Assembly (NCBI GenBank): GCA_017938885.1
Contig: JAGBAS010000093.1
Span: 3,190 to 67,189 of the forward strand
Source of the DNA: Clostridia bacterium
Lineage (GTDB): Bacteria; Bacillota; Clostridia; Oscillospirales; CAG-272
Length of the DNA: 64,000 nt
Direction of reading: 5' to 3'
Below, piece by piece: positions 27,537-55,700 of the stretch (position 1 is its first letter; each line of letters opens with the position of its first letter). Position numbers and translations under genes: made by a program. The notes beneath the pieces are model-generated. The model searched no databases. It had not been told where the DNA came from and saw only the letters and a program-made list of their open reading frames with translations.

Positions 27537-28325
27537 TCAGATTTGGTTACGTTGACGGTACTCGGTAGGACTGCATCCAATCAACTCCTTAAAATTATGA
27601 TGGAAGGTAGCCAAGGAAGTGTATCCGCATTGAGTCACAATATCCGCTATCTTGCTGTTGGTATTCTTCAAAAGATAGCAAGCGCGGTTGACCTTCGCGT
27701 TTCGGACGTAAGCCGTGTAAGGGATCCCAACCATGGTGCTGAATGCCCGTGATAAGTAAGAGGCGGAGTATCCAAGCTCCTCTGCCACGATCGTCAAGGC
27801 GCACGGCGTGTGAATGTTTTGCTCTACATAATACAGGACTTCCCGAAGCATACGGTCTCGTCCCATCAGCTTCTCCTCTTGGGTAGGATCCAATTTCTCG
27901 TAGAAAAGAGCGCAAACACTGTACAGGAAACCCTTGATCTTACTGATTGATGAGGATCTATCAATCCCTTTGAGGAGTTCCCAGTACACCGACGGAACAT
28001 CATGGATCACGGGTGAGGTCAAGGGATACTGCTTGAAACGAGAGGAAACCGTTCCGATCAGTTCAGGAGAAAAAATGCAAACTCCGGCAAGGCTTGTTTC
28101 GTCGGTTGATATACTGTGCAAAAAATTTGACTTCACAAGAAGCATATCTCCCTCTTTCAGCTCGTACTCCTCCTTTTCAACGCGCATCTTTATAGTACCC
28201 TCGTAAACAAGAATGAGTTCAAAGGTACGGTGCATATGCATAGGAAAACTTAAACCATAGTAATACTCAAGCGAGAAATACTCCGGTCCGATATCATGAT
28301 CCCAATCGTAAAAGAAATTATGCAT
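27537..28325 (-). CDS. AraC-family transcriptional regulator (cupin + HTH), last gene of the 29897-27537 pair
   Basis: FPMHMHRTFELILVYEGTIKM is the cupin. TIVAEELGYSASYLSRAFSTMVGIPYTAYVRNAKVNRACYLLKNTNSKIADIVTQCGYTSLATFHHNFKELIGCSPTEYR is the AraC HTH pair. Confidence 0.85.
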   Translation of the reverse strand: MHNFFYDWDHDIGPEYFSLEYYYGLSFPMHMHRTFELILVYEGTIKMRVEKEEYELKEGDMLLVKSNFLHSISTDETSLAGVCIFSPELIGTVSSRFKQYPLTSPVIHDVPSVYWELLKGIDRSSSISKIKGFLYSVCALFYEKLDPTQEEKLMGRDRMLREVLYYVEQNIHTPCALTIVAEELGYSASYLSRAFSTMVGIPYTAYVRNAKVNRACYLLKNTNSKIADIVTQCGYTSLATFHHNFKELIGCSPTEYRQRNQI

Positions 28326-32170: not shown

Positions 32171-35100
32171 TCAGGCTCGTTTCAAATAATAACCCTTGTA
32201 GGTGGTGACCATAGCCGTCGCTGCGCTTGCAGGATCGGACAACAGCGCGCTATCAATGGCCGTACCGCTCGTCGCGGTGGAGGAGGAGGTATACCACCAG
32301 CCCTCGGTGGTCTCAAAGCGGATCTCGGTCAACGCCGAGCAGTTGGCAAAGACGTTATAGCCAAACTTGACCACGCTGGCGGGAATGGTGATCGAAGTCA
32401 GCGCCTTGCAGTTGTAGAAGGTGCCGTTCTCCAGTGCCGTCACGCCCGCAGGGATATTCACCGTGGTCAGGGATGTACAGCCCGAGAAGGCACTCTCGCC
32501 AATGCTCACGAGTCCTTCGGGGAGGGTGATCTCGGTGAGGGATGTACAGTTTCTGAACGCATGCTTTCCGATGGAGGTAACGGTACTCGGGATGGACACC
32601 ATTGCGAGGGACTGGCAGTTGTCGAATACGCCCTCGGCAATACTCGTGACTCCCTCGGGGATGAGAATGGCGGTCAGCTTTCGACAGTCGTACAAGAGGT
32701 TGTATTCCAGAGCCGTCAGACTTGCGCTGAGCTTGACAGACTCCAGGGACCGACAGGTCGCAAAGGCGGAGGAGCCGATGGAGGTGACCGAATCGGGGAT
32801 CACGATCTCTCGGAGCTTGGTGTTGTTGAACGCCGAGGATCCGATGGTGAGAAGCCCCTCGGGGAGCGTCACCCGCTCCAGAGCGGTGCAGACATAGAAT
32901 GCGTTACCTCCCACAGAGGTCACACCGACGGGAATGGCGATCTCGGTCAGGCTCGTACAACTGTCAAAGGCGTTATTGCCGATGGAGGTCACCCCGTCGG
33001 GAATGATGATGGACGTCAAGGCCTTACAGGATCTGAAGGCGCTCGCGCTGATGGCCGTGATGTTTTTGCTGAGGGTAACGTTTGCCAGCTTTTCGCAGTA
33101 AGCGAAGGCGTGCTCGTCGATCAGGGTCACGCTGTCGGGGATCACGATGGCGGTGAGGGACTTACAGCTATTGAACGCGCTGTAGCCGATCTTGATCAAG
33201 CCATCGGGCAGGTCGATGGAGGTGAAGGGACAGTTGTTGAAGGCGTACCGTTCAATGCTGATAAGGGTGCTCGGCAATGTGACCGAGGTAAGATCATAGC
33301 AGTATTGGAAGGCGTTTTCGGGGATGACGGTGACACCCTCGGGAATGGCGATGGAGGTAAGGGCATTGCACTTGTAAAACGCATATTTCCCGATGGTCCT
33401 GAGGGTACAGGGCAGGGTGATATCCGAAAGCAGGGTACACTCGGAGAACGCTTTCTCGCCGATGGTCACGAGTCCTTCGTGCAGGGTCAGGTCGGTGAGC
33501 TTGACACACTTTTCGAATGCGGCCTGTCCGATCTCGGTGACGTTCGCGGGGATCTCCAGAGAGGCAAGAGCGGAGCAGTTGGAGAATGCCCACGTGGGAA
33601 GCACTTTGACACCCGAGCCAATGGTAACACTCGTTAAAGCGTTGCAATCGCTGAATACACTTTGTCCTAGGGAGGTCACACTGTTGGGAATGACGATGGA
33701 AGAAAGTGCCTTACAGTAACGGAAGGCGTCCTTACCAATGGCAGTCACGCCCGCAGGGATCTGAATGCTCGCGAGGGCATGACAGCTGTTAAAGGCGGAT
33801 TCGTCAATGCTCGTCAGGGTCGCGGGGAGAGTCACCGAAGTCAACGCCTTACAGTTTTGGAAGGTGCTGCGCTGAATACTCGTAACTCCCTCGGGGATAA
33901 CGATCTCGGTCAGCACCGAGCAGTTGTTGAAGGCGTATGACCCAATGGAGGTAAGGGTGTCGGGGAGCCGGACGCTCGCGAGCTTGCTACAGCCGTTGAA
34001 GACCGATTGACCGAGGCTGACGAGACCATTGGGAAGGATTACGGCGGTCAGCGCGGAGCAGTTGGAGAAGGCTTCATAGCCGATGCTTTCAAGACCCTCG
34101 TTGAACACGATGGATCCCAACGCGCGGCAATCCGTGAAGGCCCTTTGACCGATACTGCGCACGCTTGCGGGGACGGTGACGGTCGTCAGCGCCCTTGCGC
34201 TACTGAACGCGTAGTCCGAGATGATCGTGAGGCTTTCGGAGAGGGTGATCCTCTCCAGAGCGGTACAGCCGTAGAAGGCGTAGGCATCCATAGAGGTAAT
34301 GCTGTCGGGAAGGATGATCTCGGTGATGCGGGAGCAGCCCGAGAAGGCGGAATAAGACAGATTGGTGAGATTTTCGGAGAGGGTGATCTTCTCCAGCGCG
34401 CTACAGCCGTTGAAGGCGTGGCCCTCCATGAAGGTAATGCTGTCGGGAAGGATGACCTCGGTGATGAGAGTACAGCCATAGAACGCGTGGTATGCCAGAG
34501 TGGTCACCGCCGCTCCATTGTAGGTGGCGGGGAGCAGGATCCTCGACGGCATATCGTTCTTGCTCTTCATCTTGATGGAGTAGGTGCCGTCGGCAAGCTC
34601 TGTAAAGGTGAAGTAATCCGAGTGAGTCAGTCCACAGTATACGCAGTTGCCGCCCTCGTATTCGTGATCCCTGACCTCCACAAAGCTGTCCACGCGCACG
34701 TCGCCGCAAAGGTTACAGGTGTGGGTGGTGTAGCCTCGCTCACCGCAGGAGGCAGGAGTGACAACGGCCGTATAAGTGTGCCCCGTGGCAGGGATCGTCT
34801 GCTGAGCGGCGAGGACTTCGCCGCAGACCGAGCATTTCTTGCCGGCGGTCAGACCGGAGGCGGTACAGGTAGCGTTCACGGCGGGGATGATCTCTTCGGT
34901 GTGGCCAAGAGCCAATACGGTGTGCTGTGTTTCAAGAACCGCATGGCAAACCGAGCATTTCACGCCCTCGGTCAGTCCCTCCTCAGTACAGGTAGGCGCG
35001 ACGGCGGGGATGGTTTCATGGGTATGACCCGTTGCAGGGACGGTCTGCTGCGCGGTGATGATCTCGTCGCACACCGAGCATTTCGTGCCCTCGGTCAATC

Positions 35101-38100
35101 CCTCCTCGGTGCAGGTGGAGGCTACGGCGGGGATAACAACCTCGGTGTGACCCGTGGCGGTCACCTCGCTGTCGGTGTAGGCATGACCGCAGACCGAGCA
35201 GGTATGGGTGGTGTAGCCGCCCGTGGTACAGGTGGGAGACATCACGACAGAGCCGTAGCTGTGTCCCGTGGCGGGGATCCGTCCCTGGGAGGTGAGGATC
35301 TCACCGCAGACCGCGCACTTCACGCCCTCGGCAAAGCCGTCCTCGGTACAGGTGGGGGGAACGGCGGTCAGGGTCTGCTCGGTGTGTCCCTTGGCGGCGG
35401 TTTGCCCGTCGGTGTACATATGGCCGCATACGGAGCAGGTATGGGTGGTATAGCCGCCCGCCGTACAGGTGGGTGCGGTTACAACGCTTTGGTAATCGTG
35501 CCCCTTAGCGGGAACGGATTGCTGAGCCGTAAGAATCTCGCCGCAAACAGCGCATTTTTCGCCCTTGGTAAGACCCGCTTCGGTACAGGTAGCGTCAGCA
35601 GCGGGGAGGACTGCGGGAGTATGCCCCTTGGCGGGTACGATCTGTTGTGCGGTGATGATCTCATCGCATACCGAGCATTTGATGCCCTCGGTTAGTCCCG
35701 TTTCGGTACAGGTCGCCTCCATAGCGGGAAGCGTCTCGTGTGTGTGTCCCGTAGCATTCACACGGTCATCCGTGTAACGATCGCCGCAGGTACAGGTATA
35801 TGTGGTATACCCTTCAGCCATACAGGTGGGGGCGGTGATCGCGGCTTCGTAGGTGTGCGCAAGCTTAGGGATCTCTTTGGCTTCAACGTGTCCGCAATGC
35901 TCGCAGTCTCGTTTGCTTTGACCGAGCTCTGTGCAGGAGGGAGCTTTGAACTCATACCATTCCCCAAACTCATGGGGAATTCTATCTACGTAATTACCTA
36001 TGTACGAGTCACCGCATTCGCTACAGGTGTAGGTAGTATAGCCCCGTTCCGTACAGGTAGGAGGTGTTATGACAGCGTCGTAGGTATGGCTCAGCATACC
36101 GATGATCTCGGTCTCAAAGTAATCGCAATAGGCGCAATCGCGTCTCTTTTCGCCGTTTGAATCATAGGTAGGCGCAACCGTTTCTCTCCATTCACCCATG
36201 GCATGGGGAACGGTATTCGTATAATCCGCCACATAATGGTAGCCACAGGCACAGGTGTAGGTGGTATAGCCCTGCGCGGTACAGGTGGGAGCGGTCACAA
36301 CGGCGGCATAGCTGTGTCCCGTTGCGGGCGTATGCTCGCCAACGTAACTGTCGCCGCAAGCACAGGTATAGGTAGTATAGCCATCTGCCGTACAGGTGGG
36401 GGCGGTCACCACGGAATCATAGCTGTGTCCCGTGGCGGAAACCATCGTCTGCGCGGCGAGAATCGCGTGACAAACGGAGCAGTGCTTGCCCTCGGTCAGT
36501 CCCGTCTCGGTGCAGGTGGGAGCCACGGCGGCGTCGATCACCTCGGTGTGACCCGTAGCGGCTACCGTCTGCTGTGCCGCAAGGACTTCGCCGCAGACCG
36601 AGCATTTTTCGCCCTCGGTCAAGCCCGTCTCGGTACAAGTGGGCAGAACGGCAGGGATGGTCACCTCGGTGTGACCCTTGGCGGGTGTCTGTCCGTCGCT
36701 GTAGGCATGGTCGCACTTGGTACAGGTGTGGGTGGTGTAGCCATTCGTGGTACAGGTGGGGGCGGTCACCACGGAATCATAGCTGTGTCCCGTGGCGGAG
36801 ATGGCCCGGAGCTCGGTCTTTCCGCACTTATTGCAGGAACGAACTCTGGTTCCTTCTTCGGTGCAGGTTGCTTCCTGAACGGTTTTCCATTTTCCGAACG
36901 CATGGCTACATTCAGGCTCGGACACTCCCGAAAAGTGCATGGTGGCGTTCAGGAGCGGATCATTATACAGCCCGATGTCGATTTGATTCCACTCTGCTTG
37001 GGTGCCGTCATAGTACACGTCGGTGAGGTGATCGGTGTTGAAGAAGGCGGCCTCTCCGATAGCCGTTACGCCGGCGGGAACAGAGATCTCAGTCATGGCA
37101 GGACAGTTCGAGAAGGCGTACTCGTCAATGAAAGTCAGGCTGTCGGGAAGGGTGACGGTTGCGAGGAGACTGCAATCCATGAAGGCATCATGACCGATGG
37201 AGGTCACGCCCTCGGGGATCGTGACGGACACTATGCGATCGCAATCGTAGAAGGCGTATTCCGGAATGGCGGTCAAGCCCTTGGACAGCTTGACGAATGA
37301 CATAGAGTAGCAAGCGTAGAACGCGTAGGCTCCGAGAGACGTGACGCTGTCGGGAAGGGTGATGAGGGGAAGGGCTTCACAATTCTGGAAAGCACCCTGT
37401 CCGACGTGGGTGAGGGTATCGGGGAGGATCACTCTGGTCAGGCTCGTGCAGAGGAAGAAGGCATTATATCCGATGGAGGTGATGCCCCTCGGGATCATGA
37501 CGGTTTTGATGCTCGCACAAACCGCGAAGGCCTGATCGCCGATGGCCGTCACGGTATCCCCCTTGGGGCTGACCGTGGGAATCACCACGACAGTATCCCT
37601 GCAAGTACCCATGCCGCTGACATAGCAGGTACCGTCGCCGTTGGAGGTGAATGCCAATCCGACCGAGGGAGACAGACTGAACTCCCCGCACAAATAGCAA
37701 ACGCCCTCAATAAATACGTGGTCAATGGCCGCGATCTGGCGGATCTCTATGGAACCGCAGGCAAGGCAGGAACGGGACGCCGAGCCCTCCTGACCGCAGG
37801 AGGGGGCCTTGACCTCGTGCCACTTGCCCATCTCGTGCCCCAGAGCGTCCACGTAGTTGCCCACGGTGGTCAAGCCGCAAACGCAGCTTCGGGTGGTGTA
37901 GCCCTGCTCGGTACAGGTGGGGGGCGTGACTACACTGGTGTATTTATGCCTGATACGGGGGGTAAAGTTACTCTCATAGGTATGCCCGCAGGTACAGGTA
38001 TAGGTGGTGTAGCCCACCGAGCTGCAGGTAGCGGGAGTTACCTCGGTTTGATACTGATGTTCTGTGGTCGGGGTGTAATCATCCCGATAGGTGTGTCCGC

Positions 38101-38854
38101 AGGCGCAGGTGTAGGTAGTATAGCCCTCGGTGGCGCAGGTGGGCTCTGTGACCGCCGTCTCGTACTGATGCCCTTCGGCGATGACGAAATCATCCCGATA
38201 GGTGTGTCCGCAGGCGCAGGTATAGGTGGTGTAGCCGTCCAGGGCGCAGGCGGGCGGGGTGACGGCGGTCTCGTACCGGTGCCCCGTGGCGGGGATGTAA
38301 TCACCCCGATAGGTATCCCCGCAGGCGCAGGTATAGGTAGTGTAGCCGTCCTGCGCACAGGTGGGCGGTGTGACCTCGGTTTCATACTGATGCCCCGTGG
38401 CGGGGATATAATCCTCCCGATACAGATCCCAGCAGTGGCATATGTAGGTGGTGTAGCCATCTTCGGTACAGGTGGGAGGCACCACCTGGGCGGTGTAGGT
38501 GTGTCCCGTAGCGGGCACGGAACGGGTCTCGGCCAGGTTACAAACCTGACAAACCGAGGACTCCTCTCCCGCCTCGGTGCAGGTGGCGGGCTTGGTCTCC
38601 GTCCACTCCCCCATGGTATGCCCGAGCCTGTCGATCAGCTCCAGCTCAAACTGCTGACAGCCCTCCACGGTGCACAGCTTGGCCCGCACGCCCTGGGTGG
38701 AGCAGGTCGGAGCCAGCACCTCCTGCCATTCGCCGAGGATATGCTCGTGCTCGGGAACTTCTACGTTGGGATCCGTCTCGTCACAAGCTGTAAGCGTGCA
38801 TAAGAAAAGCAACGCCGTCAGGATCATGCACAGCATCAAAAATTTCTTTTTCAT
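32171..38854 (-). CDS. Giant (2227 aa) lipoprotein: two blocks of about 33-aa His/Cys repeats alternating with two BspA-type leucine-rich-repeat blocks
   Basis: Lipobox LFLCTLTAC. About 28 repeats of two types: ATGH.Y..VVT.PTCT..GYTTYTC.CG and ATGHTE.I.AV.PTCTE.GLTEG.KCSVC. LRR units: IPEGVTSIG..AF..C..LTSVTLP..L. The C-terminal 80 aa or so are non-repetitive. Confidence 0.85.
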   Translation of the reverse strand: MKKKFLMLCMILTALLFLCTLTACDETDPNVEVPEHEHILGEWQEVLAPTCSTQGVRAKLCTVEGCQQFELELIDRLGHTMGEWTETKPATCTEAGEESSVCQVCNLAETRSVPATGHTYTAQVVPPTCTEDGYTTYICHCWDLYREDYIPATGHQYETEVTPPTCAQDGYTTYTCACGDTYRGDYIPATGHRYETAVTPPACALDGYTTYTCACGHTYRDDFVIAEGHQYETAVTEPTCATEGYTTYTCACGHTYRDDYTPTTEHQYQTEVTPATCSSVGYTTYTCTCGHTYESNFTPRIRHKYTSVVTPPTCTEQGYTTRSCVCGLTTVGNYVDALGHEMGKWHEVKAPSCGQEGSASRSCLACGSIEIRQIAAIDHVFIEGVCYLCGEFSLSPSVGLAFTSNGDGTCYVSGMGTCRDTVVVIPTVSPKGDTVTAIGDQAFAVCASIKTVMIPRGITSIGYNAFFLCTSLTRVILPDTLTHVGQGAFQNCEALPLITLPDSVTSLGAYAFYACYSMSFVKLSKGLTAIPEYAFYDCDRIVSVTIPEGVTSIGHDAFMDCSLLATVTLPDSLTFIDEYAFSNCPAMTEISVPAGVTAIGEAAFFNTDHLTDVYYDGTQAEWNQIDIGLYNDPLLNATMHFSGVSEPECSHAFGKWKTVQEATCTEEGTRVRSCNKCGKTELRAISATGHSYDSVVTAPTCTTNGYTTHTCTKCDHAYSDGQTPAKGHTEVTIPAVLPTCTETGLTEGEKCSVCGEVLAAQQTVAATGHTEVIDAAVAPTCTETGLTEGKHCSVCHAILAAQTMVSATGHSYDSVVTAPTCTADGYTTYTCACGDSYVGEHTPATGHSYAAVVTAPTCTAQGYTTYTCACGYHYVADYTNTVPHAMGEWRETVAPTYDSNGEKRRDCAYCDYFETEIIGMLSHTYDAVITPPTCTERGYTTYTCSECGDSYIGNYVDRIPHEFGEWYEFKAPSCTELGQSKRDCEHCGHVEAKEIPKLAHTYEAAITAPTCMAEGYTTYTCTCGDRYTDDRVNATGHTHETLPAMEATCTETGLTEGIKCSVCDEIITAQQIVPAKGHTPAVLPAADATCTEAGLTKGEKCAVCGEILTAQQSVPAKGHDYQSVVTAPTCTAGGYTTHTCSVCGHMYTDGQTAAKGHTEQTLTAVPPTCTEDGFAEGVKCAVCGEILTSQGRIPATGHSYGSVVMSPTCTTGGYTTHTCSVCGHAYTDSEVTATGHTEVVIPAVASTCTEEGLTEGTKCSVCDEIITAQQTVPATGHTHETIPAVAPTCTEEGLTEGVKCSVCHAVLETQHTVLALGHTEEIIPAVNATCTASGLTAGKKCSVCGEVLAAQQTIPATGHTYTAVVTPASCGERGYTTHTCNLCGDVRVDSFVEVRDHEYEGGNCVYCGLTHSDYFTFTELADGTYSIKMKSKNDMPSRILLPATYNGAAVTTLAYHAFYGCTLITEVILPDSITFMEGHAFNGCSALEKITLSENLTNLSYSAFSGCSRITEIILPDSITSMDAYAFYGCTALERITLSESLTIISDYAFSSARALTTVTVPASVRSIGQRAFTDCRALGSIVFNEGLESIGYEAFSNCSALTAVILPNGLVSLGQSVFNGCSKLASVRLPDTLTSIGSYAFNNCSVLTEIVIPEGVTSIQRSTFQNCKALTSVTLPATLTSIDESAFNSCHALASIQIPAGVTAIGKDAFRYCKALSSIVIPNSVTSLGQSVFSDCNALTSVTIGSGVKVLPTWAFSNCSALASLEIPANVTEIGQAAFEKCVKLTDLTLHEGLVTIGEKAFSECTLLSDITLPCTLRTIGKYAFYKCNALTSIAIPEGVTVIPENAFQYCYDLTSVTLPSTLISIERYAFNNCPFTSIDLPDGLIKIGYSAFNSCKSLTAIVIPDSVTLIDEHAFAYCEKLANVTLSKNITAISASAFRSCKALTSIIIPDGVTSIGNNAFDSCTSLTEIAIPVGVTSVGGNAFYVCTALERVTLPEGLLTIGSSAFNNTKLREIVIPDSVTSIGSSAFATCRSLESVKLSASLTALEYNLLYDCRKLTAILIPEGVTSIAEGVFDNCQSLAMVSIPSTVTSIGKHAFRNCTSLTEITLPEGLVSIGESAFSGCTSLTTVNIPAGVTALENGTFYNCKALTSITIPASVVKFGYNVFANCSALTEIRFETTEGWWYTSSSTATSGTAIDSALLSDPASAATAMVTTYKGYYLKRA

Positions 38855-38882: not shown

Positions 38883-39209
38883 TCAGGTTTTGCTCATACA
38901 TTCGATGCATAAGCCGTCCGTGTCGTGATAGCAGTCATCACATACCCGCCTTTGGCAGACGGGACAGCGGTTGACGTGCAGCAGGACCTCCTTGTTCGCC
39001 CGATCATACGCGCTTGCGTGGTCGCTCTGCCAGATCAACTCTCTTGCTTTTTGCTCCGACCTTGAGATAAAGACTTTCGCTTTGAACGGCGGCTTGTACG
39101 GATAGGTGATCCGGGAGACCTCACGCCCGCACAGGTCGCAAAAAAAAGTAAATCTGAATACCTCAAGCGTGGAGCCGTCCTCATACTTTTTCGTTACGGG
39201 TTCCAGCAT
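38883..39209 (-). CDS. Small cytoplasmic protein with four CxxC motifs (zinc-ribbon-like), 28 nt upstream of the giant LRR gene
   Basis: Start at MLEPVTKKYEDG (RBS aaagggggg). Motifs: CDLC, CPVC, CDDC, CIEC. No signal peptide. Confidence 0.6.
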   Translation of the reverse strand: MLEPVTKKYEDGSTLEVFRFTFFCDLCGREVSRITYPYKPPFKAKVFISRSEQKARELIWQSDHASAYDRANKEVLLHVNRCPVCQRRVCDDCYHDTDGLCIECMSKT

Positions 39210-39356
39210 TCTTTTCCCCCCTTTCATTACGGACATCATACTGTTCTCCCATTATATAGGATCTTGACGGTTCTGTGACCCTCCCGACGGGGGGGTAAGT
39301 GGGGGGGAGCAGGTTTTTTTCGCCGAAACGGGAGAAATATGATCGACTTCAGGCAG

Positions 39357-39387
39357 ACAAAAAGAGCAGCCGATCACTCGACTGCTC
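39357..39387 (-). terminator. Intrinsic terminator after 39400-41793
   Basis: The minus strand reads GAGCAGtCGAgtgaTCGgCTGCTC followed by TTTTT. Confidence 0.65.
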
Positions 39388-39399
39388 TGTGTGTATGCC

Positions 39400-41793
39400 T
39401 TAGGGATCCTTGCGATGCCTTCCGTCGATCCGCTCGAACAGCTCGTTCTTGCTTCCGACACCCAGCTTCCCGTAGACCTTTCGTGTGTATTCCTTGACGG
39501 TGTTGACCGTGATACCGAGATAGTAGGCGATCTCGCTCTGCTTTCTGCCCTTGAGCAGCTCGCGCAGCACGTCCAGCTCGCGGTCTGTCAGAAGATTGAC
39601 CTCCTCCGTATCCCGCAGGATGCGGTCGATCTCTTCATCCGTGTAGCGCATGCGAACAATGATGGGAGGCGGGACGGTTGCCGTGCCCTCGGCGGGGACT
39701 GCGTCAGAGACGGCAGGGATGGGCTCGCGCTCCTTGCGGTTGCGTCTGAAAAGGAGCAGAACGCAGACGACACCAAGCACCGACACGGCAACCGACAGGA
39801 GCACAATGGGAAGGAGAGGAAAGCGGGGAGGCTCCTCGCCGGGAGGTGCCGTCGAAGGCGTGACAGGCTCGGTGGCGGGAGTTGAAGTCACTTCGGTATC
39901 AGGCAATATGACAGGCTCCGTATCCGGCGTTGTGACAGGCTCAGTTACCGGCGTTGTGACAGGCTCCGTTACCGGCGGCTCGGGGGGAGCCGTCACGGGC
40001 GGCACTTCGGTCTCGTTAAGACGGTAGCAGGCGTAATAGGTGACGTCGCCTGCGGTACTGTGCACCGCACCCTCCGCGATAGGCTCTCCCTCACCGTCAG
40101 CCGTGGCGAACCATCCCGAGAAGGTATAGCCCTCCTTGGCCTCTGATTCAGGGAAGAGGATCGGTGCGCCGAAGTCGCAGGACACCCTCGTTTCCGTCTC
40201 TCCCATCACAAAGGTGATCTTGTAGGTGTTGGGTGTCCAGACCGCGTACAGATCGACGTACTCGGTGCCGCCTCCTACGGAGAGCCGCGTATCGGGGGCG
40301 TAGTCCCCTCCGTCACCGAATTGCCAACGGTCGAAGGTATAGCCGTCCTTTTGGTATTCGGGAAGGGTGGGTATCTCGCCATAGCAGACCGTGACGGTAT
40401 CCTTTACCTCTCCGTCCACAAGGAAACGGTAGGTCATATCGGAACGGGCATTGTTGCCTGCGTGGAAAACGCCGTGGCGGTTATCAAAGCGGTTACCCGA
40501 GACGCCCTCCAAAGCATCGCCGTCGATCTCCACGCTGCCCTCCATATGCTTATAAGGATCGCCCAAGTGATTGGTTTCGGTCATGTAACAGTATTGATTT
40601 GCTTCGCTCGGCATCGCTTCTGTGCGACCTTCGCCGTGAAGGGCACATCCGAACAAGGAAAGGCGTTCCGCATCGTATTCCTTCATAGCAGGCGTGTTGC
40701 CCGACAAGGTGGAGAGAACCAGGAAGGTCTTGCCCACACCTCCGCTACCGAGCTCCGCTTGGTTTTCGGATATGTAAAGCGCGCCGCCGGATGCGGCAGT
40801 ATTGTTTGCGATCGTGCCGTTGACAACGGTAACGAGGTTATTGCCGTAATTCTCGTTCCAGATACCGCCTCCGTTCTCGGTTGCACGATTGCCCGAGATC
40901 ACACAGCCGTCCAGTACGCTTTCGGTGTAAGAAAGCGCAATGCCTCCGCCGTTTCTGGCTTGGTTATCGAAAACGTAACAGTTCTTCATATGGAGCGTTC
41001 CGCGCCCCACGTAGACACCGCCGCCCTTGGTCAGCGTGTCGGGATAGAAATTCTCAAAGCGGTTTCCGCTGATCTTGCAGCTTTCAAGGGTAACGGTCGC
41101 CTGATCTGCCCATATCGCGCCGCCGTAACCCGATACGTTGCGGGAAAGCTCGCAGTTTTTCATATCAAGAAAGATATTGCCCGCGCCGGAAAGATAAATC
41201 GCGCCGCCATAGCCGCCTGCGTTGGCGTTCAGCGAACAGTCCTCAAAAGAGACGGACAAACGGTGACCTACGCTGTCGGCAGAAGAATAAATGCCGTAGA
41301 CCGCGCCGCCGTTTGCCATACTGTAACCCGAAAAATCACAGTTTACAAAGGCTGCATCGACACAGCGGGAGAAAAATACCGCCGGGCGGATCTTGGTCGC
41401 CGTCATGATCTGTTTCCCCGTAAAGTCGGTTTTGTCGATGTCATTCACGCCCGCAAAGGTGATATTTTCAAAACGGATATGTATGGTATCCTGCTCGGAC
41501 GCGCCGCCCATCACAGCAAACGCGCCGCCCGAAAAGACAGCAGGCGTATTCTTACCGCTTTTAATGGTCACTCCCTTAGAAAGTGTCATCCCCATCGGGG
41601 AGTAGGCAAATTCGATATCGCCGACAAGGATCGTATCGCCCTCACTTGCATGATGAAGTGCCTCCTTCAGCTCTGACTCTGTGGTGATCAGCTTGGGCTC
41701 GGCGGCGAACGCTCCCGTGCTCATCGCCGCAAGCACTGCCGCGACTGCCCAGATCGTCAAAAAAACGCATATGACTGTTTTTTTACGGTTCAT
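39400..41793 (-). CDS. Type I membrane protein: signal peptide, beta-helix with GGA[IV][YW] (Pmp-like) repeats, two Listeria-Bacteroides (Flg_new) repeats, P/T linker, one TM helix, C-terminal cytoplasmic LuxR/GerE HTH
   Basis: Signal peptide ...STGAFA/AE. Seven NGGA/YGGAI-type motifs. GYTFDRWQF and GYTFSGWF. TM FPLLPIVLLSVAVSVLGVVCVLLLF followed by RRNRKER. The C-terminus is LTDRELDVLRELLKGRKQSEIAYYLGITVNTVKEYTRKVYGKLGVGSKNELF. Confidence 0.8.
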   Translation of the reverse strand: MNRKKTVICVFLTIWAVAAVLAAMSTGAFAAEPKLITTESELKEALHHASEGDTILVGDIEFAYSPMGMTLSKGVTIKSGKNTPAVFSGGAFAVMGGASEQDTIHIRFENITFAGVNDIDKTDFTGKQIMTATKIRPAVFFSRCVDAAFVNCDFSGYSMANGGAVYGIYSSADSVGHRLSVSFEDCSLNANAGGYGGAIYLSGAGNIFLDMKNCELSRNVSGYGGAIWADQATVTLESCKISGNRFENFYPDTLTKGGGVYVGRGTLHMKNCYVFDNQARNGGGIALSYTESVLDGCVISGNRATENGGGIWNENYGNNLVTVVNGTIANNTAASGGALYISENQAELGSGGVGKTFLVLSTLSGNTPAMKEYDAERLSLFGCALHGEGRTEAMPSEANQYCYMTETNHLGDPYKHMEGSVEIDGDALEGVSGNRFDNRHGVFHAGNNARSDMTYRFLVDGEVKDTVTVCYGEIPTLPEYQKDGYTFDRWQFGDGGDYAPDTRLSVGGGTEYVDLYAVWTPNTYKITFVMGETETRVSCDFGAPILFPESEAKEGYTFSGWFATADGEGEPIAEGAVHSTAGDVTYYACYRLNETEVPPVTAPPEPPVTEPVTTPVTEPVTTPDTEPVILPDTEVTSTPATEPVTPSTAPPGEEPPRFPLLPIVLLSVAVSVLGVVCVLLLFRRNRKEREPIPAVSDAVPAEGTATVPPPIIVRMRYTDEEIDRILRDTEEVNLLTDRELDVLRELLKGRKQSEIAYYLGITVNTVKEYTRKVYGKLGVGSKNELFERIDGRHRKDP

Positions 41794-41832: not shown

Positions 41833-41861
41833 ATTATAACATAATACATGCTTTTTTTCAA
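41833..41861 (-). promoter_or_regulatory. Promoter of 39400-41793
   Basis: The minus strand reads TTGAAA-N17-TGtTATAAT, about 40 nt upstream of the ATG at 41793. Confidence 0.6.
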
Positions 41862-42119: not shown

Positions 42120-42986
42120 ATGAGCATACCCAACACCCGACCTATGCTCCCCCGACCCTGCCGAAATGGCTCGCGAACAGCGAAGCTGTTCAGAAAATCG
42201 GGAGGTATAGAAGAGGTATTTGAGAATATGTATCCGCAAATCGTGCCCCGGGAGATTTTCGACCGCGTGCGAAGCAAGATCACCGCCAACAAGTACGGCA
42301 AGCTAAGCGTGGAGGTGGTCTACCTACTCCGTCACAAGCTCAAATGCGGTTACTGTGGCCAGCCCATCAGCGCAGAAACGGGTACATCCAAGACAGGAGC
42401 CAAAAAGCGCTACTACAAATGCTACGGTCGCAAAAATCACAACGGATGCCAAAAGTCCATGATGCGGAAGGATCAGCTTGAAAATCTGGTGGTATCCACC
42501 ATCATCGACGAGTTATCCAAGCCCAAGACCCTTGACCAGATCGTAGCCGGGCTTCTGGAGGAACAGGAACGGTACATCAAGGAACACTACATGCTGAACG
42601 TACTACTCCGCGAGCAGCGGCAAGTCGAAACCTCCATTGAGAACGTCATGGAGGCCATCGAGCGAGGTGTGATCACCAACACGACCACCAAGCGTTTGAA
42701 GGATTTGGAGGCGAGACAGGAAGAGCTTGACAGGCAGATCCTCATAGAGAGAAGCAAAAACGCAGTGAGGGTATCCGTCGAGGAAATCAAGATGTACTAC
42801 AAGGAAGCCTTGGCTTTGGAGGCCCAGATGCTCATTAACTATATCGTGAAGGAGATCGTCATGTACGATGACAAGATCGAAATCTTTTTCCATAAACCTA
42901 CACGGAACAGTCCCGATGAAAGTCGGGGCTGTTTTGTTTATAAGGGGCGGAATGAAAATTTCGATGTCCAGATATGGATCGTGTGA
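42120..42986 (+). pseudogene. Large serine recombinase lacking the N-terminal catalytic (resolvase) domain
   Basis: VFENMYPQIVPREIFDRVRSKI is the end of the recombinase domain. KCGYCGQPISAETGTSKTGAKKRYYKCYGRKNHNGC is the zinc ribbon, followed by a coiled coil. The first 25 codons or so look unrelated, and there is no Ser-nucleophile domain. Confidence 0.75.
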
Positions 42987-49206: not shown

Positions 49207-49497
49207 CTACTTCCAGATGTCGATATTCACGTCCGCAACGTCCAGGTAGCAGAGCGTTCCCGCCTCGACCTGCTCTCGGGCCACGAAATCGGGAAGGAAC
49301 GAGATCATGTCGCTGTGCGCCAATATGCTCGTAATGATACCGGTCCGCCCGATCTCCAGAACGGGTGTGATCTCCAAAGACTTTTTCACAAGCTCCTTAT
49401 CGAACACATGGAGATCCCCTTGACTGTACTCGGTCAGGATGAAGGGCTCGCCCGCTATATCATTCACAACTGAATCGTAACAAAGACTATGATGAAG
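49207..49497 (-). pseudogene. LysR-family regulator, C-terminal substrate-binding fragment
   Basis: GEPFILTEYSQGDLHVFDKELVKKSLEITPVLEIGRTGIITSILAHSDMISFLPDFVAREQVEAGTLCYLDV. The upstream part of the tracked ORF is antisense nonsense. Confidence 0.5.
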
Positions 49498-49722
49498 ACG
49501 GAAGCCGCAACGATTTTCACAGAGAGTCGGGGACGGTGCGATCCCGATAAAGGACTGCGGATTTCCTATCCCTTCTGAGCCGGAAGCCCCAAAGGTTTGG
49601 CCCTCGGGCCGGGCACCCGGCAGACGCTTCCCGTGCATGCTGCGTGAATGCATAGAGGTTATACGACCTCGAAGAGGTGGCGGAGCATTTGTATCCACAA
49701 TTTGAATGGTACCGCGAGTAAG

Positions 49723-49948
49723 GAGGCGCTGATGAATGCCTTGATCGTGGATATGGCCCTGGGGTGCTCCACCAACAGTATGCTCCATTTGCCCGCCATC
49801 TCCCACAAGTGCGGTGTGGAGCTGAATACGGATATCGCCAACGGGATCAGCGCGGTCACGCCCAATCTTTTCCATCTTACGCCCGCGGGCCATACCTACA
49901 TGGAGGATCTGAACAAGGCGGGCGATGTCTATGCGGTCATGGACACAT
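49723..49948 (+). pseudogene. ilvD: Dihydroxy-acid dehydratase internal fragment
   Basis: EALMNALIVDMALGCSTNSMLHLPAISHKCGVELNTDIANGISAVTPNLFHLTPAGHTYMEDLNKAGDVYAVM matches the conserved IlvD core (DMALGGSTN..LHL.AIA...G). The flanks are unrelated. Confidence 0.6.
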
Positions 49949-50288: not shown

Positions 50289-50558
50289 TCAGTCCTCGAT
50301 GATAAGCCCCAGGGCCTTGAGCTTTTCAATGATCGCCGCGACGTCCGCCCGGATGACCGCGGGATCCTCCCCGTAGTCCTCGCTCATGATGCTCACGATG
50401 TCTTCGACGTCCTTACCTTCGGCCAGCATATCCCAGATCTCCCCTCCGGTCGGTGTCAGGACGTACAGTCCGTTCATTTCGCCGGCGGCCTCGCCAACGG
50501 GCACCAGCATATCCTCGTCTGCGACACAGCGATGGATCACGTTTTCATTCACCTTCAT
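50289..50558 (-). CDS. PqqD-family protein (RiPP recognition element)
   Basis: MKVNENVIHRCVADEDMLVPVGEAAGEMNGLYVLTPTGGEIWDMLAEGKDVEDIVSIMSEDYGEDPAVIRADVAAIIEKLKALGLI is a typical PqqD pattern. The start overlaps the rSAM stop by 14 nt. Confidence 0.8.
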   Translation of the reverse strand: MKVNENVIHRCVADEDMLVPVGEAAGEMNGLYVLTPTGGEIWDMLAEGKDVEDIVSIMSEDYGEDPAVIRADVAAIIEKLKALGLIIED

Positions 50559-51681
50559 AACAATCCTCCTTGAGGGGGTATTTTTTCCGAATGGCCTCGG
50601 CCAGCTCATGGGTCATGCGGCAGACGTACTCGGGGCGGATATCGGTCCTCCCCGTTTCGGACAGGCAGGCCGCCGCGCAGAGGGGGCATTGTGCTCGAAG
50701 GGCGCACTCGCGGCAGGCGGCAGGTAGCAGGATCGCGGCGGTATCCCGTCGGGTAGCCTCCCAGGCCTCCGCGAAGCTCATGTGCTTCAAATCATACCCG
50801 TCGGTGGGGAACATCCCGCAGGGGAGCATACGGCCGTCCCACGTGACCCAGAAATTGGTCTTGCCCGCCCGACAGCTCATCCGTTCCCCCTGCCCGTCGG
50901 TACAGTCCTCCGTGGGGTCGTGGGGCTCCGTCGGAACCATATCTCGGATCTGCTCGGGATCCATGTATTGCTCGCGGCAGAGCAGTGTATGAGCGGCGGC
51001 CTCCTCCGCCGTAAAGCGACACGCCGCCTCTCCGTACGCGCCGCCGTTGATCCGGGACGGAGGGAACATATAGGCAGTCCCCTTGACCACCAGGTCATTC
51101 TCCCGCGCGAAGCGGTAAATCTCCGGGACGTCCTTGGCATTGATCGGAGTCACGGAAGCATTCAGGCGGACCTGGATCCCCGCCTCCCGCAGCATACGGA
51201 TATTGGCCGCAACGGTATGAAAGCTTCCCTGCCCGCACAGCGCTCGGTAGGTCTCGTCCGAGGCGCCGTACAAGGAGATGTTCATTCGCAAGGGAGGGTC
51301 CTTTTTGAAGAACGCCACCCAATCGGGATCGATCAGGGAAGCGTTGGTATTGATGGAGATGAGCAGGCCCAGCCTCTTGAGCCCGCTGTAGATCTCCCGA
51401 AAGTCCTTTCGGATCAAGGGCTCCCCTCCCGTCAAAAGGAGGAACACCATGCCGGCGTCACGGGCCACCCGCCCCAGCTCCAGCCATTCCCGGGCCGTCC
51501 ATTCCTCCTCGGCTCGCACGGTCTGGTGAACGTAGCACATACGGCAGTTGAAATTGCATCGGGGCGTCAGCTCAAAATTGCCCGAAAGGGGGATGCCCCT
51601 CGCGGAAGCCTTCGCGTGGATGTATTGGTTCCACAGGGGCTCGATCCCGCGGGGCGTTTTCATTTTTTCATTCATATCCAT
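50545..51681 (-). CDS. Radical SAM / SPASM-domain peptide-modifying enzyme
   Basis: CNFNCRMC (CX3CX2C, residues 42-49). LLLTGGEPLIR. SPASM region: CRAGKTNFWVTWDGRMLPC (C-x12-G-x4-C) and CRECALRAQCPLCAAAC. The start overlaps the stop of the upstream gene. Confidence 0.85.
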   Translation of the reverse strand: MDMNEKMKTPRGIEPLWNQYIHAKASARGIPLSGNFELTPRCNFNCRMCYVHQTVRAEEEWTAREWLELGRVARDAGMVFLLLTGGEPLIRKDFREIYSGLKRLGLLISINTNASLIDPDWVAFFKKDPPLRMNISLYGASDETYRALCGQGSFHTVAANIRMLREAGIQVRLNASVTPINAKDVPEIYRFARENDLVVKGTAYMFPPSRINGGAYGEAACRFTAEEAAAHTLLCREQYMDPEQIRDMVPTEPHDPTEDCTDGQGERMSCRAGKTNFWVTWDGRMLPCGMFPTDGYDLKHMSFAEAWEATRRDTAAILLPAACRECALRAQCPLCAAACLSETGRTDIRPEYVCRMTHELAEAIRKKYPLKEDCYEGE

Positions 51682-52780: not shown

Positions 52781-55700
52781 TCAAGAGCGCTTACGGCCTA
52801 CGAAAACGTAGGCTGCAAGCATGGCAATCGCAACCAGAGATCCCGTGCCGATCACGGAGCCGCATCCGGCCAGATCCTCGGTCGGTTCCTCCGTCAGGCC
52901 TTCGGTTTCACGCGCACCGTCAGTTTCGACAGGCGCAGGATCCGTATCTGTCACAGGCGCGTTTCCATCGGCAGGTTCGGTCTCGTCCGCGGTCTCGTCC
53001 TCAGCGGTCTGTTCCCCGTCGGGCTGACCCAGGTTGTCAACGGGAGGCTGACCGTCTCCGTCGTCGGGCAGGGGCTCGACTGCGGGGGGAGCGATCTCGG
53101 TCTCATCGCCGTCCACAGGCTTATCCCCGTCGGAAGCACCGCCGTCCGCCTCGGGAGCGCCGGAGCTGTACAGCAGGGCCATGACCTCGATACCCTCCGA
53201 AAGAGTCTCGGGATCCACCACGGGCCGGACCATGACGCCGTCCTGCTCAAAGGTGAACTTGAAGCCCGTGAAGGAGATCACGGAGGAGGTGTCGTGGAAG
53301 TACTCCCGATCGCTGTGGGAGAAGGTGATGACAGGGGTCTCGTAGTAGGCCACCTCACCGTTCTCGTCGGTCACGGGGGTCCAGGTGATGTGGTTCATAG
53401 GATAGAACATATTGGCTGCGCCATGGACGTGGAGGAAGTCGTGGGCACCGTGCTTGATGACGCCGTCGGTACCGACGGCCATCTTCACGCCGATGTGGGT
53501 GGCAGTCGGAATGGCCGTAGCGGTGAGCTTGAAGGAGATGCCCTGGCCCTTGGCGAGATAAAGCTCATTGTTGGGGCCGGGATTCTCGTAATCCTTGATG
53601 CTGACCGTAGCGTCCTTACCGTCGATGAAAACCACACCGGGGAGGGTCTCCTGATCCCGGATCTCACCGATCCCCAGGACCAGATCCTTCATGGTCATGT
53701 AGAAGGGAGCATACTCCTTATCGGCCTTATGGGCATTGTCCGCGGTCTCGTTGCCCTTGGCGGGATCGTAAATGCGGATGGAGTCCAGCACGAAGGTACT
53801 GGTGCCGTCGGGATACAGGTAGTCCACACTCTCCAGGAAGATCACGCTGATCTTCACGGTGTAGGCGGCCTGCTCCAGTCCGCTGAGCTTGATCACAGGG
53901 ACCTGCCATACCGTATCCTCGGAGGAAGCGTTGGGCTGCCAGCCCTCTTCCTCGGAGTAGGTATAGCCGTAGTAGTTGTTGACCGACTTGGAGGCGACCT
54001 TATGGCCATCCTTGTCGTATACCGTCACCAGGATGGTGGCGCCCACGTTATCAGTCAGGGAGATGATATCGAAGCCGGTCCCCGTGAAGGTAAAGGTAGC
54101 GGTGGGAGCGGTCCGGGGATTACCCAGATCGAGGTTCACGGTGACGGCCTTGGCACCGCCGTTACTGAAGGTGGCGCAGGAGGTGTAGGAGGGATCGAAG
54201 CCGTAGACGTTATTGGCGTCGAGGCTGGCGAGATTATTGAAGCCGGGACGGTCCACGCTCTGAGGAGCGTTGGGATCGGCCGTACCCACGTCGGTCCACA
54301 CGCCCAGGGTATCGGTGGCGGCGGAGGAATCCTCAAAGGTGAGGAAGTCCTCCTCAAAGTACATATTGGCGGCGGGGATGACCGTGATGGTACCGTAGTA
54401 GTAGCGACTCTCGTACAGCACCGCATAGGAGAAGATCTCCGGCTCGGTCATGTTGGTGCCCACGCCCTGTCGGAGGGCGTAGCGGATCCCGTTCGGGGTG
54501 ATGGTGGCGGTGCCGAACTTGCCCTCATAGACGGTGCGCAGAGTACCATCCGCGACGAAGGAGGCGGACAGATGAGCCTCGCCGTTGACGCTGGCCGACG
54601 TGGTGTGGGGACCGACGGCGACGATACCGCCCTTGTTGTAGAACATATCGTTCAGAAGGGCCTGGATGTTCACGGGCTGACCGTAGTCGATGACTACCAC
54701 GTCGCTGACGGGCTTGACGGTGTAGACCACGGCGAACCACACGATGGTGTGGGTGTAATCGTAGGCGGGATCGTCCTCCTCCAGCTCGTTGGTGAACTGG
54801 TAGCTGTCGTGACCCGTTACGTAGGTAGAGGAGGTGGGGACGTTGCCCTTACCGATGGTCCAGGCGCTGGCACCCAGAGCGGATCTGACGTGGACGGTAT
54901 AGGTCGCGTCCTTATCGTAGAGCTCGTAGCCCTCGGGCAGATCCTGCGCGGCCAGCTCGGCGGCGTTCAAGGACACCGTGGAGTTGAGCAGGGCATAGAA
55001 GGTGGGGGTGGTGATATTCAGGCGGTTGGCGAAGGAGCCGGTCATGCCCATCTCCTGATTGACCAGGGACAGACCGTTCTCATCTACCAGGTAGAAGGCA
55101 TAGCGGACGGACGCGGCCTGCCACGGGATCTGGGGAGACACGGTCTCGCGGTAGGCATCGTTACCCAGCCAGTTGGTGTAGTACAGGATCGCGCTCTGGT
55201 TGGTATTGTAGGTGCCGGGCTCCAGCTCGCCCTCCATGGAGCCGTCCAGATAGACGTAGTAGGACAGCACCATGTCATGCTGGTTGATGGTACCCATATC
55301 CCAGTAGAAGGACTCGTTGGCCAGCAGGTAGTCCTCGGTGCCGTCCAGATCCGAGTCGATCATCACGGAGTAGTCGTTGGTGTTGTACCAGAAGTGACGG
55401 GCATAGATAACGCCGTTTTGCATGATGTTTCCGCCGAAGATGCTGGAGTATGCCTCGGTACCGTCGGCGTTGAAGGTGACGGTCTCCACCACGGTGCTCA
55501 TTCCGTTACGGGTACCGATCTTATCGTGGGGGATGATACCCGCCTCCACGTCGGCGTGGGTGTACAGACCGTACAGGGTGAACTTGATCTCGGGCAGGAT
55601 GCTGCGGTTCTCGAAGCGGCCCTCGCTGTTCAGGAACCTGTAATCCACCCGGGACATCTGAAGGTCGAACTGCTTGCCCATGGTGTCCACGAAGTAGGCA

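Follow-up and report, generated by a model that had tools for sequence, protein, structure and literature searches.

A predicted membrane-tethered GerE regulator with a beta-helix ectodomain, an adjacent candidate operator and a small cysteine-rich partner protein in gut and rumen Clostridia

Introduction

To our knowledge, single-pass membrane sensors that carry a GerE DNA-binding domain of their own have been described so far in Bacteroidota only. SusR, the starch regulator of Bacteroides thetaiotaomicron, is said to date from 1996, and its mechanism is reportedly still unresolved. In cellulolytic Clostridia, the RsgI/SigI systems use single-pass anti-sigma sensors, with many paralogs per genome, whose extracellular carbohydrate-binding modules signal the presence of polysaccharides to the transcription machinery. 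Here we describe a gene of a Clostridia bacterium (assembly GCA_017938885.1, contig JAGBAS010000093.1) at positions 39400 to 41793 on the minus strand of a 64,000-nucleotide stretch of DNA, which we call the window. Its product, referred to below as the regulator, is predicted to join a secreted beta-helix sensor through one membrane helix to a cytoplasmic GerE domain.

BguR regulates beta-glucan utilisation in Formosa agariphila and other marine Bacteroidota. It consists of a signal peptide, a beta-propeller, a transmembrane (TM) helix and a GerE domain, and activates its adjacent locus (2026 preprint, bioRxiv 10.64898/2026.01.10.698779). SusR has a signal peptidase I signal, a periplasmic N-terminus, one TM helix and a cytoplasmic helix-turn-helix (HTH) at its C-terminus, and activates adjacent operons without a phosphorelay (PMC2757170). 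The SusR HTH was reported to lack significant similarity to known transcription factor families, and the family was reported to be restricted to Bacteroidetes. Predicted SusR sites are direct repeats 67-77 bp apart (PMC3878776). Genomes of Coriobacteriia each encode dozens of LuxR activators with 10-12 TM helices, such as DadR, CadR and HcdR of Eggerthella lenta (PMC9734109). CadC, which like ToxR and TcpP is a single-pass regulator, is discussed in PMC6320335. An earlier note on this DNA had set the topology of the regulator against established knowledge; SusR, BguR and the membrane LuxRs of Coriobacteriia, however, already have a C-terminal DNA-binding domain.

Domain layout and topology of the regulator

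The regulator is probably a membrane-tethered one-component regulator that binds a triad of boxes next to its own gene and controls the operon behind it, which encodes a 108-aa protein (named Zn108 here) and a giant leucine-rich repeat (LRR) lipoprotein. Its coding sequence (39400..41793) specifies 797 amino acids (aa) plus stop from an ATG start; this gene, its control elements and the Zn108-LRR operon all lie on the minus strand. The promoter predicted earlier was found at 41833..41861 as a sigma-70-like element (TTGAAA-17-TATAAT with TG, 11/12 matches), and the predicted intrinsic terminator at 39363..39388 as a hairpin followed by a T-run, which is kept in related loci.

Hydropathy identifies two hydrophobic segments only, residues 4-31 and 655-685. 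The first belongs to a putative signal peptide (residues 1-30, 41704..41793) in which an MNRKK n-region precedes a hydrophobic core ending in AFA/AE, as the earlier note had read it; the AlphaFold2 (AF2) model has a helix at residues 3-25. The second is the single TM helix (residues 661-687, 39733..39813), which contains Pro and Gly, is followed by RRNRKER as claimed, and is also indicated by AF2 and by the Lys/Arg bias of the family. Between them lie a right-handed parallel beta-helix (residues ~35-450, 40444..41691) with an N-cap (ILVGDIEF) and seven GGx[IVL]x turns, two Flg_new (Listeria-Bacteroides repeat) domains (residues 452-592, 40018..40440) recognized by Pfam and Foldseek, and the disordered Pro/Thr-rich linker with PVTEPVTT repeats that had been noticed before (residues 598-659, 39817..40002). 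Inside the cell, a disordered juxtamembrane spacer (residues 688-718, 39640..39732) would lead to a helical domain (residues 719-797, 39403..39639) made of an extra N-terminal helix (RYTDEEIDRIL) and a four-helix GerE/LuxR HTH with the recognition helix TVNTVKEYTRKVYGKL. The earlier estimate of about 430 aa with seven motifs held for the motif count (GG[AG][IVL]x at residues 162, 196, 224, 257, 282, 308 and 336), but these motifs cover only ~175 aa of a ~400-aa beta-helix; likewise, the GerE domain stood, while the cytoplasmic tail is ~114 rather than about 100 residues long.

All three domain types expected earlier scored above their Pfam gathering scores: Flg_new in two stretches (E 7e-13), GerE (PF00196) at residues 734-785 (E 5e-12, 45.8 bits, cut-off 23.5), and Chlam_PMP in one marginal match (22.0 bits, cut-off 20.6). 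NCBIfam matched only the Flg_new region (internalins) and the HTH (NarL, FixJ, CsgD and others), far under the family thresholds, and neither Pfam nor NCBIfam searches found a phosphorelay domain (HisKA, HATPase_c, REC) in the regulator. The AF2 model, built from the family alignment, has a mean predicted local distance difference test score (pLDDT) of 85.4 and a predicted template modelling score of 0.69, and places the elements in the expected order: the beta-helix at ~50-450 (pLDDT mostly >90), two beta domains at 452-592, the TM helix at 661-687 and a helical bundle at 719-794, with disorder at 598-659 and 687-713 (pLDDT <50 in both). The GerE helices span residues 737-747, 752-759, 763-777 and 782-794 (pLDDT >87).

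In Foldseek searches against the PDB, the beta-helix resembles Pel9A, PL6 alginate lyases, AlgE4 epimerase, tailspikes and Rhombotarget A (E 1e-4 to 1e-2), with 1ru4, 7o7t and 2pyg matching at E 1e-4 to 3e-3 and TMt up to 0.5. The Flg_new domain superimposes on the InlB B-repeat 2y5p (TM-score 0.86, root mean square deviation 1.5 Å), and the tail matches the solved GerE domains of 3clo, VraR, DesR, ComA and NarL by sequence. As modelled, the ectodomain has folds found in secreted proteins that bind or act on carbohydrates and in adhesins. Most invariant columns of the beta-helix family are ladder positions with Gly, Asn or Phe; D59 in the N-cap is also invariant.

Topology was called from hydropathy, the positive-inside rule, the AxA motif and the fold types, and the signal peptide call is heuristic. 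On this basis an N-out/C-in single-pass protein with a cytoplasmic GerE HTH and without a phosphorelay, as the earlier note had proposed, is strongly supported, both for the window protein and for its 37 homologs (below). We also observed that the Pro/Thr linker is an insertion relative to 740-aa homologs such as P0002, which is 84% identical to the regulator in the family alignment and 78% by BLASTP. Its repeat content differs even from that of the 99%-identical P0001, and the distance between sensor and membrane is hypervariable.

A beta-helix family in gut and rumen Clostridia

The full-length search returned 37 protein clusters of 634-815 aa with 99% to 27% identity to the regulator, in all of which GerE (PF00196) occurs alongside beta-helix, PMP or Flg_new domains; the matches ranking lower are ordinary beta-helix proteins that lack an HTH. 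Exactly one C-proximal TM segment is present in 37/37, with ~4 Lys/Arg on its C-terminal side vs ~1 on its N-terminal side, and the HTH starts 28-64 aa beyond the helix, with a single exception of 113 aa. An N-terminal hydrophobic segment was detected in 33/37, the remaining four being apparently N-truncated gene calls. Within the tail, conservation is highest in the HTH, where R738, E739, G749 and T765 are invariant and K767, Y774 and K776 near-invariant.

A scan of species-representative genomes gave 70 loci with the full layout, nearly all in gut or rumen Clostridia metagenome-assembled genomes (MAGs). They belong to Eubacteriales, Oscillospiraceae, Acutalibacteraceae and Christensenellaceae and to Ca. 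Scatosoma, Faecousia and Vescimonas; sheep, goat, roe deer and horse are among the hosts. Two or three paralogs occur in several MAGs, and the regulators of loci L001, L002 and L004 share 99% identity with the window gene. A family member is listed at NCBI as 'hypothetical protein', and no publication on this exact family was found in the literature.

The same survey bears on an assembly error or frameshift that would have joined a surface-protein gene to a separate LuxR gene, a possibility that the earlier note had raised. The continuous open reading frame (ORF), with its TM+HTH tail, recurs in at least 37 clusters from independent assemblies (27-99% identity) and in 70 loci from many MAG projects; we rejected a fusion artefact and regard it as practically negligible.

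We also considered a generic TM+GerE tail shared by many ectodomain types. A word-based tail search gave mostly fragments and NarL/FixJ response regulators, and in an exhaustive search all single-pass TM-to-HTH matches carry the same VGDIDF-type beta-helix. The idea was dropped, and by these matches the single-pass relatives form one beta-helix family. Polytopic GerE proteins resembling the Coriobacteriia LuxRs also appeared among the tail-search matches. A phage or defence affiliation was discarded: PHROGs matched the HTH only to generic regulator/sigma families and Zn108 weakly to an unknown family, and PADLOC gave nothing meaningful. As a separate observation, P0269, P0270, P0272, P0273, P0278 and P0284 contain tandem GerE-like stretches, 6-10 of them in giant proteins (2800-7700 aa) and four in smaller ones (300-450 aa), which is unusual.

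Candidate operator boxes and recognition helices

Between the regulator terminator and the Zn108 promoter lies the candidate operator triad (39278..39307), CCCCCCC-ACT-TACCCCCCC-GTC-GGGAGGGT, with two direct boxes and one inverted box that shares two bases with the -35 hexamer. The promoter itself (39251..39279, GTCACA-17-TATAAT) is sigma-70-like, and its -10 is kept in related loci; the earlier note had placed it at 39210-39260. The triad is unique in the 64-kb window (chance expectation 0), its position relative to -35 and -10 is alike in several lineages, and distant beta-helix members without Zn108 still show the order terminator, triad, -10 and next operon. The zinc-ribbon and LRR genes, named earlier as candidate targets, are credible ones, with a unique triad that abuts their promoter and co-varies with the HTH. 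Control of the Zn108-LRR operon through predicted binding of the regulator HTH to the triad is supported by this comparative evidence. No boxes were found upstream of the regulator's own promoter, and autoregulation was rejected on this ground. Rfam gave no structured RNA in the intergenic regions at E <= 0.1.

When recognition helices and boxes of different loci were compared, a small number of pairings became apparent. Class A (the window, L001-5, L008, L009, L011/12/15/31 and L017) has a helix with TVKEY[TV]RKVY and boxes ACCCCCC / GGGAGGGT. Class B (L024 group, L021, L049, L051) has TVKDNAGRIY, TVKDYAGRVY, TVKDYYRKIY or TVKDNARRIY with boxes TACCTACC / GGTAGGTA, class C (L032, L034, L035, L038-41) has TVKKNISSIY with GTACCCG / CGGGTA, and class D (L045, L047, L048) has T[IV]KKH[ST][AT]S with GTAG[AC]CC; L063 pairs TVKTHIKNIY with TATCCCCC / GGGGGATA. 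The variable residues sit right behind the invariant T-V-K, at positions which, from general knowledge of NarL-DNA complexes, we take to be base-contacting. In their own intergenic region, boxes of a given class reach 30-100x the density that they have elsewhere in the locus, with hardly any cross-occurrence, an enrichment that is partly circular since the classes were set by eye after the data had been seen. This co-variation suggests that the operator box sequence tracks the HTH recognition helix across lineages.

The circularity just mentioned is one of several points that weigh against our interpretation. An automatic 8-mer triad statistic was enriched (9/17 loci vs a 6.9% background), but its seeds often fell on terminator stems or A-tracts, so it is no clean test and we do not lean on it; for 7-mers with one mismatch the background is 36%. 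Classes C and D are not strictly separated by the four residues after TVK, as L046 combines a class D helix and class C-like boxes. The outer boxes of class B, together with the T-run, could double as the regulator terminator. The likeness of the beta-helix to lyases is generic (E 1e-4 to 1e-2, TM-score 0.2-0.5). The organism is known from uncultured MAGs only, and functional statements about it are comparative sequence evidence. Finally, an operator that overlaps the -35 suits repression equally, and some loci have a good -35 (TTGAAA in L049).

This last point leads to a different mode of action, in which the tethered HTH would sit on the triad and block the -35 until a ligand, or lost clustering, releases it. 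Besides the overlap of the inverted box with the -35 hexamer, the near-consensus -35/-10 of some family promoters (L049) speaks for such a repressor, as an activator should be unneeded there. However, the -35 of the window promoter, GTCACA, matches the consensus at 4/6 positions only, and activation is the mode of action of all characterised membrane-bound comparators (SusR, BguR and DadR/CadR/HcdR). Provided that the predicted -10 is right, the palindrome is centred at ~-43, the classic class II activator position known from LuxR at the lux box. By precedent and by this position, the regulator would act as an activator, and we consider repression unlikely, if still a serious alternative.

The box data also bear on the proposal that the protein is mainly a surface adhesin or polysaccharide-active enzyme whose HTH no longer binds DNA, the boxes being unrelated elements such as terminator parts or recombination sites. 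A beta-helix similar to those of lyases, epimerases and tailspikes, PMP and Flg_new repeats typical of adhesins, and class B boxes that could serve as a terminator would all be in keeping with it. It is difficult to reconcile with an HTH that is the best-conserved part of the tail, with its four invariant residues, or with boxes that co-vary with the recognition helix even under an unrelated 7TM sensor (below). In loci of classes A and C, a terminator separate from the boxes lies upstream of them, and no inverted repeats flank the Zn108 promoter, by which a phase-variable inverton was also rejected. We consider a DNA-binding-deficient surface protein very improbable, and a tethered DNA-binding regulator remains the preferred reading.

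Zn108 and the downstream genes

Zn108 (38883..39209) is predicted to be cytoplasmic. The ATG at 39209, rather than position 39239, is most likely the true start of this small gene, as both this start and a ribosome-binding site (GAAAGGrGG) are conserved across loci. A Zn108 homolog lies 160-250 bp 3' of the regulator on the same strand in 27/27 informative loci, that is, those among L001-L041, L067 and L068 in which the regulator match reaches the HTH and the flank shows at least part of Zn108. In the reverse direction, the Zn108 homologs P0138 and P0141 directly follow beta-helix/Flg_new/GerE genes. Zn108 remains 66-77% identical where the ectodomain is down at ~40%. Its family comprises 25 clusters with eight invariant Cys in four CxxC pairs and one invariant His, and the AF2 model (pLDDT 80) consists of a beta-sheet, a long helix and C-terminal zinc knuckles.

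Searches with Zn108 gave nothing significant in Pfam (two matches far under threshold, E ~0.05-0.07), no family in NCBIfam, no fold match of the model in the PDB (best E 0.5), and, with its profile against PDB sequences, only the DksA zinc finger at a non-significant E of 0.28. No second copy of Zn108 or of the regulator tail was found within the 64-kb window. Taken together, the conservation pattern points to Zn108 as a conserved downstream partner, or first target gene, of the regulator.

The next gene (32171..38854) starts 25 nt past the Zn108 stop and is probably co-transcribed with it. It encodes a 2227-aa lipoprotein (lipobox LTAC) with dozens of ~33-aa Cys-rich repeats (consensus ..TGHxY..V..PTCT..GYTTYTCxCG..Y..) interspersed with two blocks of BspA-type LRR_5 repeats. 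The protein is only 84-87% identical between otherwise 99%-identical strains (L001, L004), which marks it as a fast-evolving surface protein. In many loci, a different run of genes is conserved after Zn108 (L026:8325-14413, L071:6423-9008, L073:6344-11139), with zinc-ribbon/DZR proteins of ~250-280, 360-380, 260 and 170 aa and two proteins without a Pfam domain (~249 and ~675 aa); this operon may be the ancestral target of these regulators. In the distant members L046 and L045, a different small protein (ELNPVYMEICDQLGYDTALEIYRLF and MLNSVYKEISEHCGF) replaces Zn108 as the first gene 3' of the regulator and may be an alternative small partner.

Recombination between sensors and output modules

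Ectodomain, tail and Zn108 do not diverge in step. Relative to the window, L007 has an ectodomain of 88% identity with a class B tail of 54% and a Zn108 of 67%. L031 shows the reverse, with 39% for the ectodomain and 74% for both tail and Zn108. L017, at ~35% identity over the full-length regulator match, has a Zn108 of 94% (partial match) together with a class A tail and class A boxes. Across locus pairs, which are non-independent so that the values are descriptive only, Zn108 identity correlates with tail identity at a Spearman coefficient of 0.89 vs 0.60 with ectodomain identity. These comparisons indicate that the ectodomain type and the tail/operator/Zn108 module recombine independently.

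P0145, which has diverged furthest among the Zn108 homologs, is preceded by a 330-aa HisKA_7TM+GerE protein without a kinase domain (L072:4178-5673, Logan SRR28895809). This 7TM-GerE protein has the helix ETVKKHISSLY, and its intergenic region contains the class-C-type boxes TACCCCG-AA-CGGGGTA and GTACCCG. The combination of class-C-like helix, boxes and Zn108 suggests that the HTH/operator/Zn108 output module is also served by an unrelated sensor. A bolder reading, which we put forward only tentatively and rate as rather doubtful as a whole, is a portable two-protein output module in which the membrane-anchored GerE tail, its cognate triad and Zn108 as obligate partner would have been combined through recombination with interchangeable sensors, namely at least two beta-helix ectodomain types and a 7TM domain. 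In such a module Zn108 could, for example, bridge the tethered HTH and RNA polymerase or act as a diffusible relay away from the membrane. If true, gut Firmicutes would have a kind of transmembrane signalling not recognised before, whose channels would be orthogonal inside a single genome.

Proposed mechanism

In our model of a tethered activator, the signal peptide would export the beta-helix and the two Flg_new domains to the outer face of the membrane, and the TM helix with its flexible ~30-aa spacer would keep the GerE/LuxR HTH at the inner face. There the HTH, either as a dimer joined by a third protomer or as a larger oligomer, would bind the triad of 8-bp boxes at 39278-39307, which lies just 3' of the regulator gene and borders on the -35 of the promoter that follows. 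Occupancy of the triad would recruit RNA polymerase in the manner of a class II activator, and the bound HTH would thus control the operon of Zn108 and the giant BspA-like LRR lipoprotein. Since disordered linkers of variable length lie on both sides of the TM helix, binding of a ligand to the beta-helix, or its contact with a surface, would more readily alter oligomerisation or clustering than act through a rigid conformational relay. Zn108 might have a part in this output module, be it that of cofactor, feedback element or diffusible relay.

A tethered factor would have reason to keep its operator next to its own gene: co-translational membrane insertion would hold that site near the membrane, and an operator beside the gene would solve the search problem of a membrane-bound factor. 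This arrangement also bears on signal-induced proteolysis, which the earlier note had proposed and by which cleavage in or near the TM helix would free a soluble HTH fragment that acts here and possibly at distant promoters. Disordered linkers on either side of the TM helix, and Pro and Gly within it, would be in keeping with this. Against cleavage, the operator always adjoins the regulator gene, as a permanently tethered factor would require, the window has no second class A triad, the genes conserved next to the cassette include no protease, and short-tail members have only ~20-30 aa between TM helix and HTH. Proteolytic release is improbable in our view, and permanent tethering is the reading we prefer.

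By its modelled folds, the ectodomain may sense a glycan or surface contact. Secreted glycan-active proteins (GH31 with PA14, GH123, CBM6, F5/8 type C) abound in the window, a neighbourhood that fits a glycan cue and does not demonstrate one.

Other genes of the window

The secreted glycan-active cluster occupies 4671-29984 and encodes a PA14 protein, an ASD1-like arabinofuranosidase domain, the GH31 protein with PA14, the GH123 protein, a chitobiase-C/Fn3-associated protein, a protein with F5/8 type C and CBM6 domains, and an AraC regulator (27537-28325); the organism would seem to be a glycan forager. A truncated large serine recombinase lies just upstream of the regulator, on the plus strand (42120-42986); only the Recombinase end and Zn_ribbon_recom are left of it, the catalytic N-terminal domain being missing. 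Fragments of it recur at the same place in L001, L003 and L004, and it is probably a decayed mobile-element remnant. A 2031-aa ORF without a Pfam match at E <= 1e-5 is found at 52781-58876 on the minus strand, mirrored by a 1877-aa ORF on the opposite strand, with a radical SAM gene (50545-51681) and a LysR fragment (49207-49893) nearby.

Implications and comparison with known systems

With this family, the single-pass sensor-GerE principle would reach Gram-positive Clostridia of gut and rumen, where the sensor is an unrelated beta-helix. The family lends itself to testing, with a very short signalling path, an adjacent operator, natural specificity variants in which helix and box change jointly, and natural sensor swaps, and could be used to study how a signal crosses through one helix between disordered linkers or to build orthogonal biosensors of extracellular inputs for anaerobes. 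It also marks giant BspA-like adhesins, and clusters of zinc-ribbon membrane proteins, as regulated outputs in uncultured herbivore-gut bacteria, and Zn108 defines a new family of small Cys8 proteins without annotation.

Among the described systems, BguR shares with the regulator the order of signal peptide, sensor, one TM helix, linker and GerE domain, the absence of a phosphorelay, the position next to the controlled locus and a conserved intergenic motif. The BguR sensor, however, is a double beta-propeller plus Y_Y_Y, homologous to the sensors of hybrid two-component systems, whereas here it is a beta-helix plus Flg_new. BguR works in a Gram-negative periplasm on a SusC/D polysaccharide utilisation locus, in contrast to a zinc-ribbon protein and a giant LRR lipoprotein in Clostridia, and no Zn108-like partner has been reported for it. 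SusR has the same N-out/C-in single-pass topology, but its HTH is reported as unclassifiable and its predicted sites are far apart, whereas the regulator has a clear GerE domain and closely spaced boxes. With neither Y_Y_Y nor propeller, the sensor of the regulator is not homologous to those of BguR or SusR. By domain order the regulator would thus work like these two proteins, yet it is not a member of either sequence family because its sensor is an unrelated beta-helix/Flg_new module.

The Coriobacteriia LuxRs are likewise membrane-bound one-component activators of neighbouring genes with a C-terminal cytoplasmic GerE HTH, and form a greatly expanded family, divergent in its sensor parts, in Gram-positive gut bacteria. 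They differ in their polytopic 10-12-TM sensor, which lacks a large ectodomain and a signal peptide and responds to small molecules such as catechols; the regulator has one signal peptide and one TM helix in place of such a domain. ToxR, CadC and TcpP are also single-pass, bind DNA while tethered, do without a phosphorelay and act on one or few promoters, but their OmpR-type winged helix is N-terminal and cytoplasmic and their sensor C-terminal and periplasmic, which is the opposite orientation, with another DNA-binding fold. RsgI has an N-terminal cytoplasmic anti-sigma domain and relies on a separate sigma factor, whereas the regulator carries its own C-terminal DNA-binding domain. The right-handed parallel beta-helix is a fold that the ectodomain has in common with PL6, PL9 and AlgE4. 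In place of the barrel of a chlamydial Pmp autotransporter, the C-terminus has a TM helix and an HTH, and the single Chlam_PMP match is marginal. What is new compared with the known systems is the phylum, the sensor fold, the tight co-variation of operator and HTH, and the Zn108 partner.

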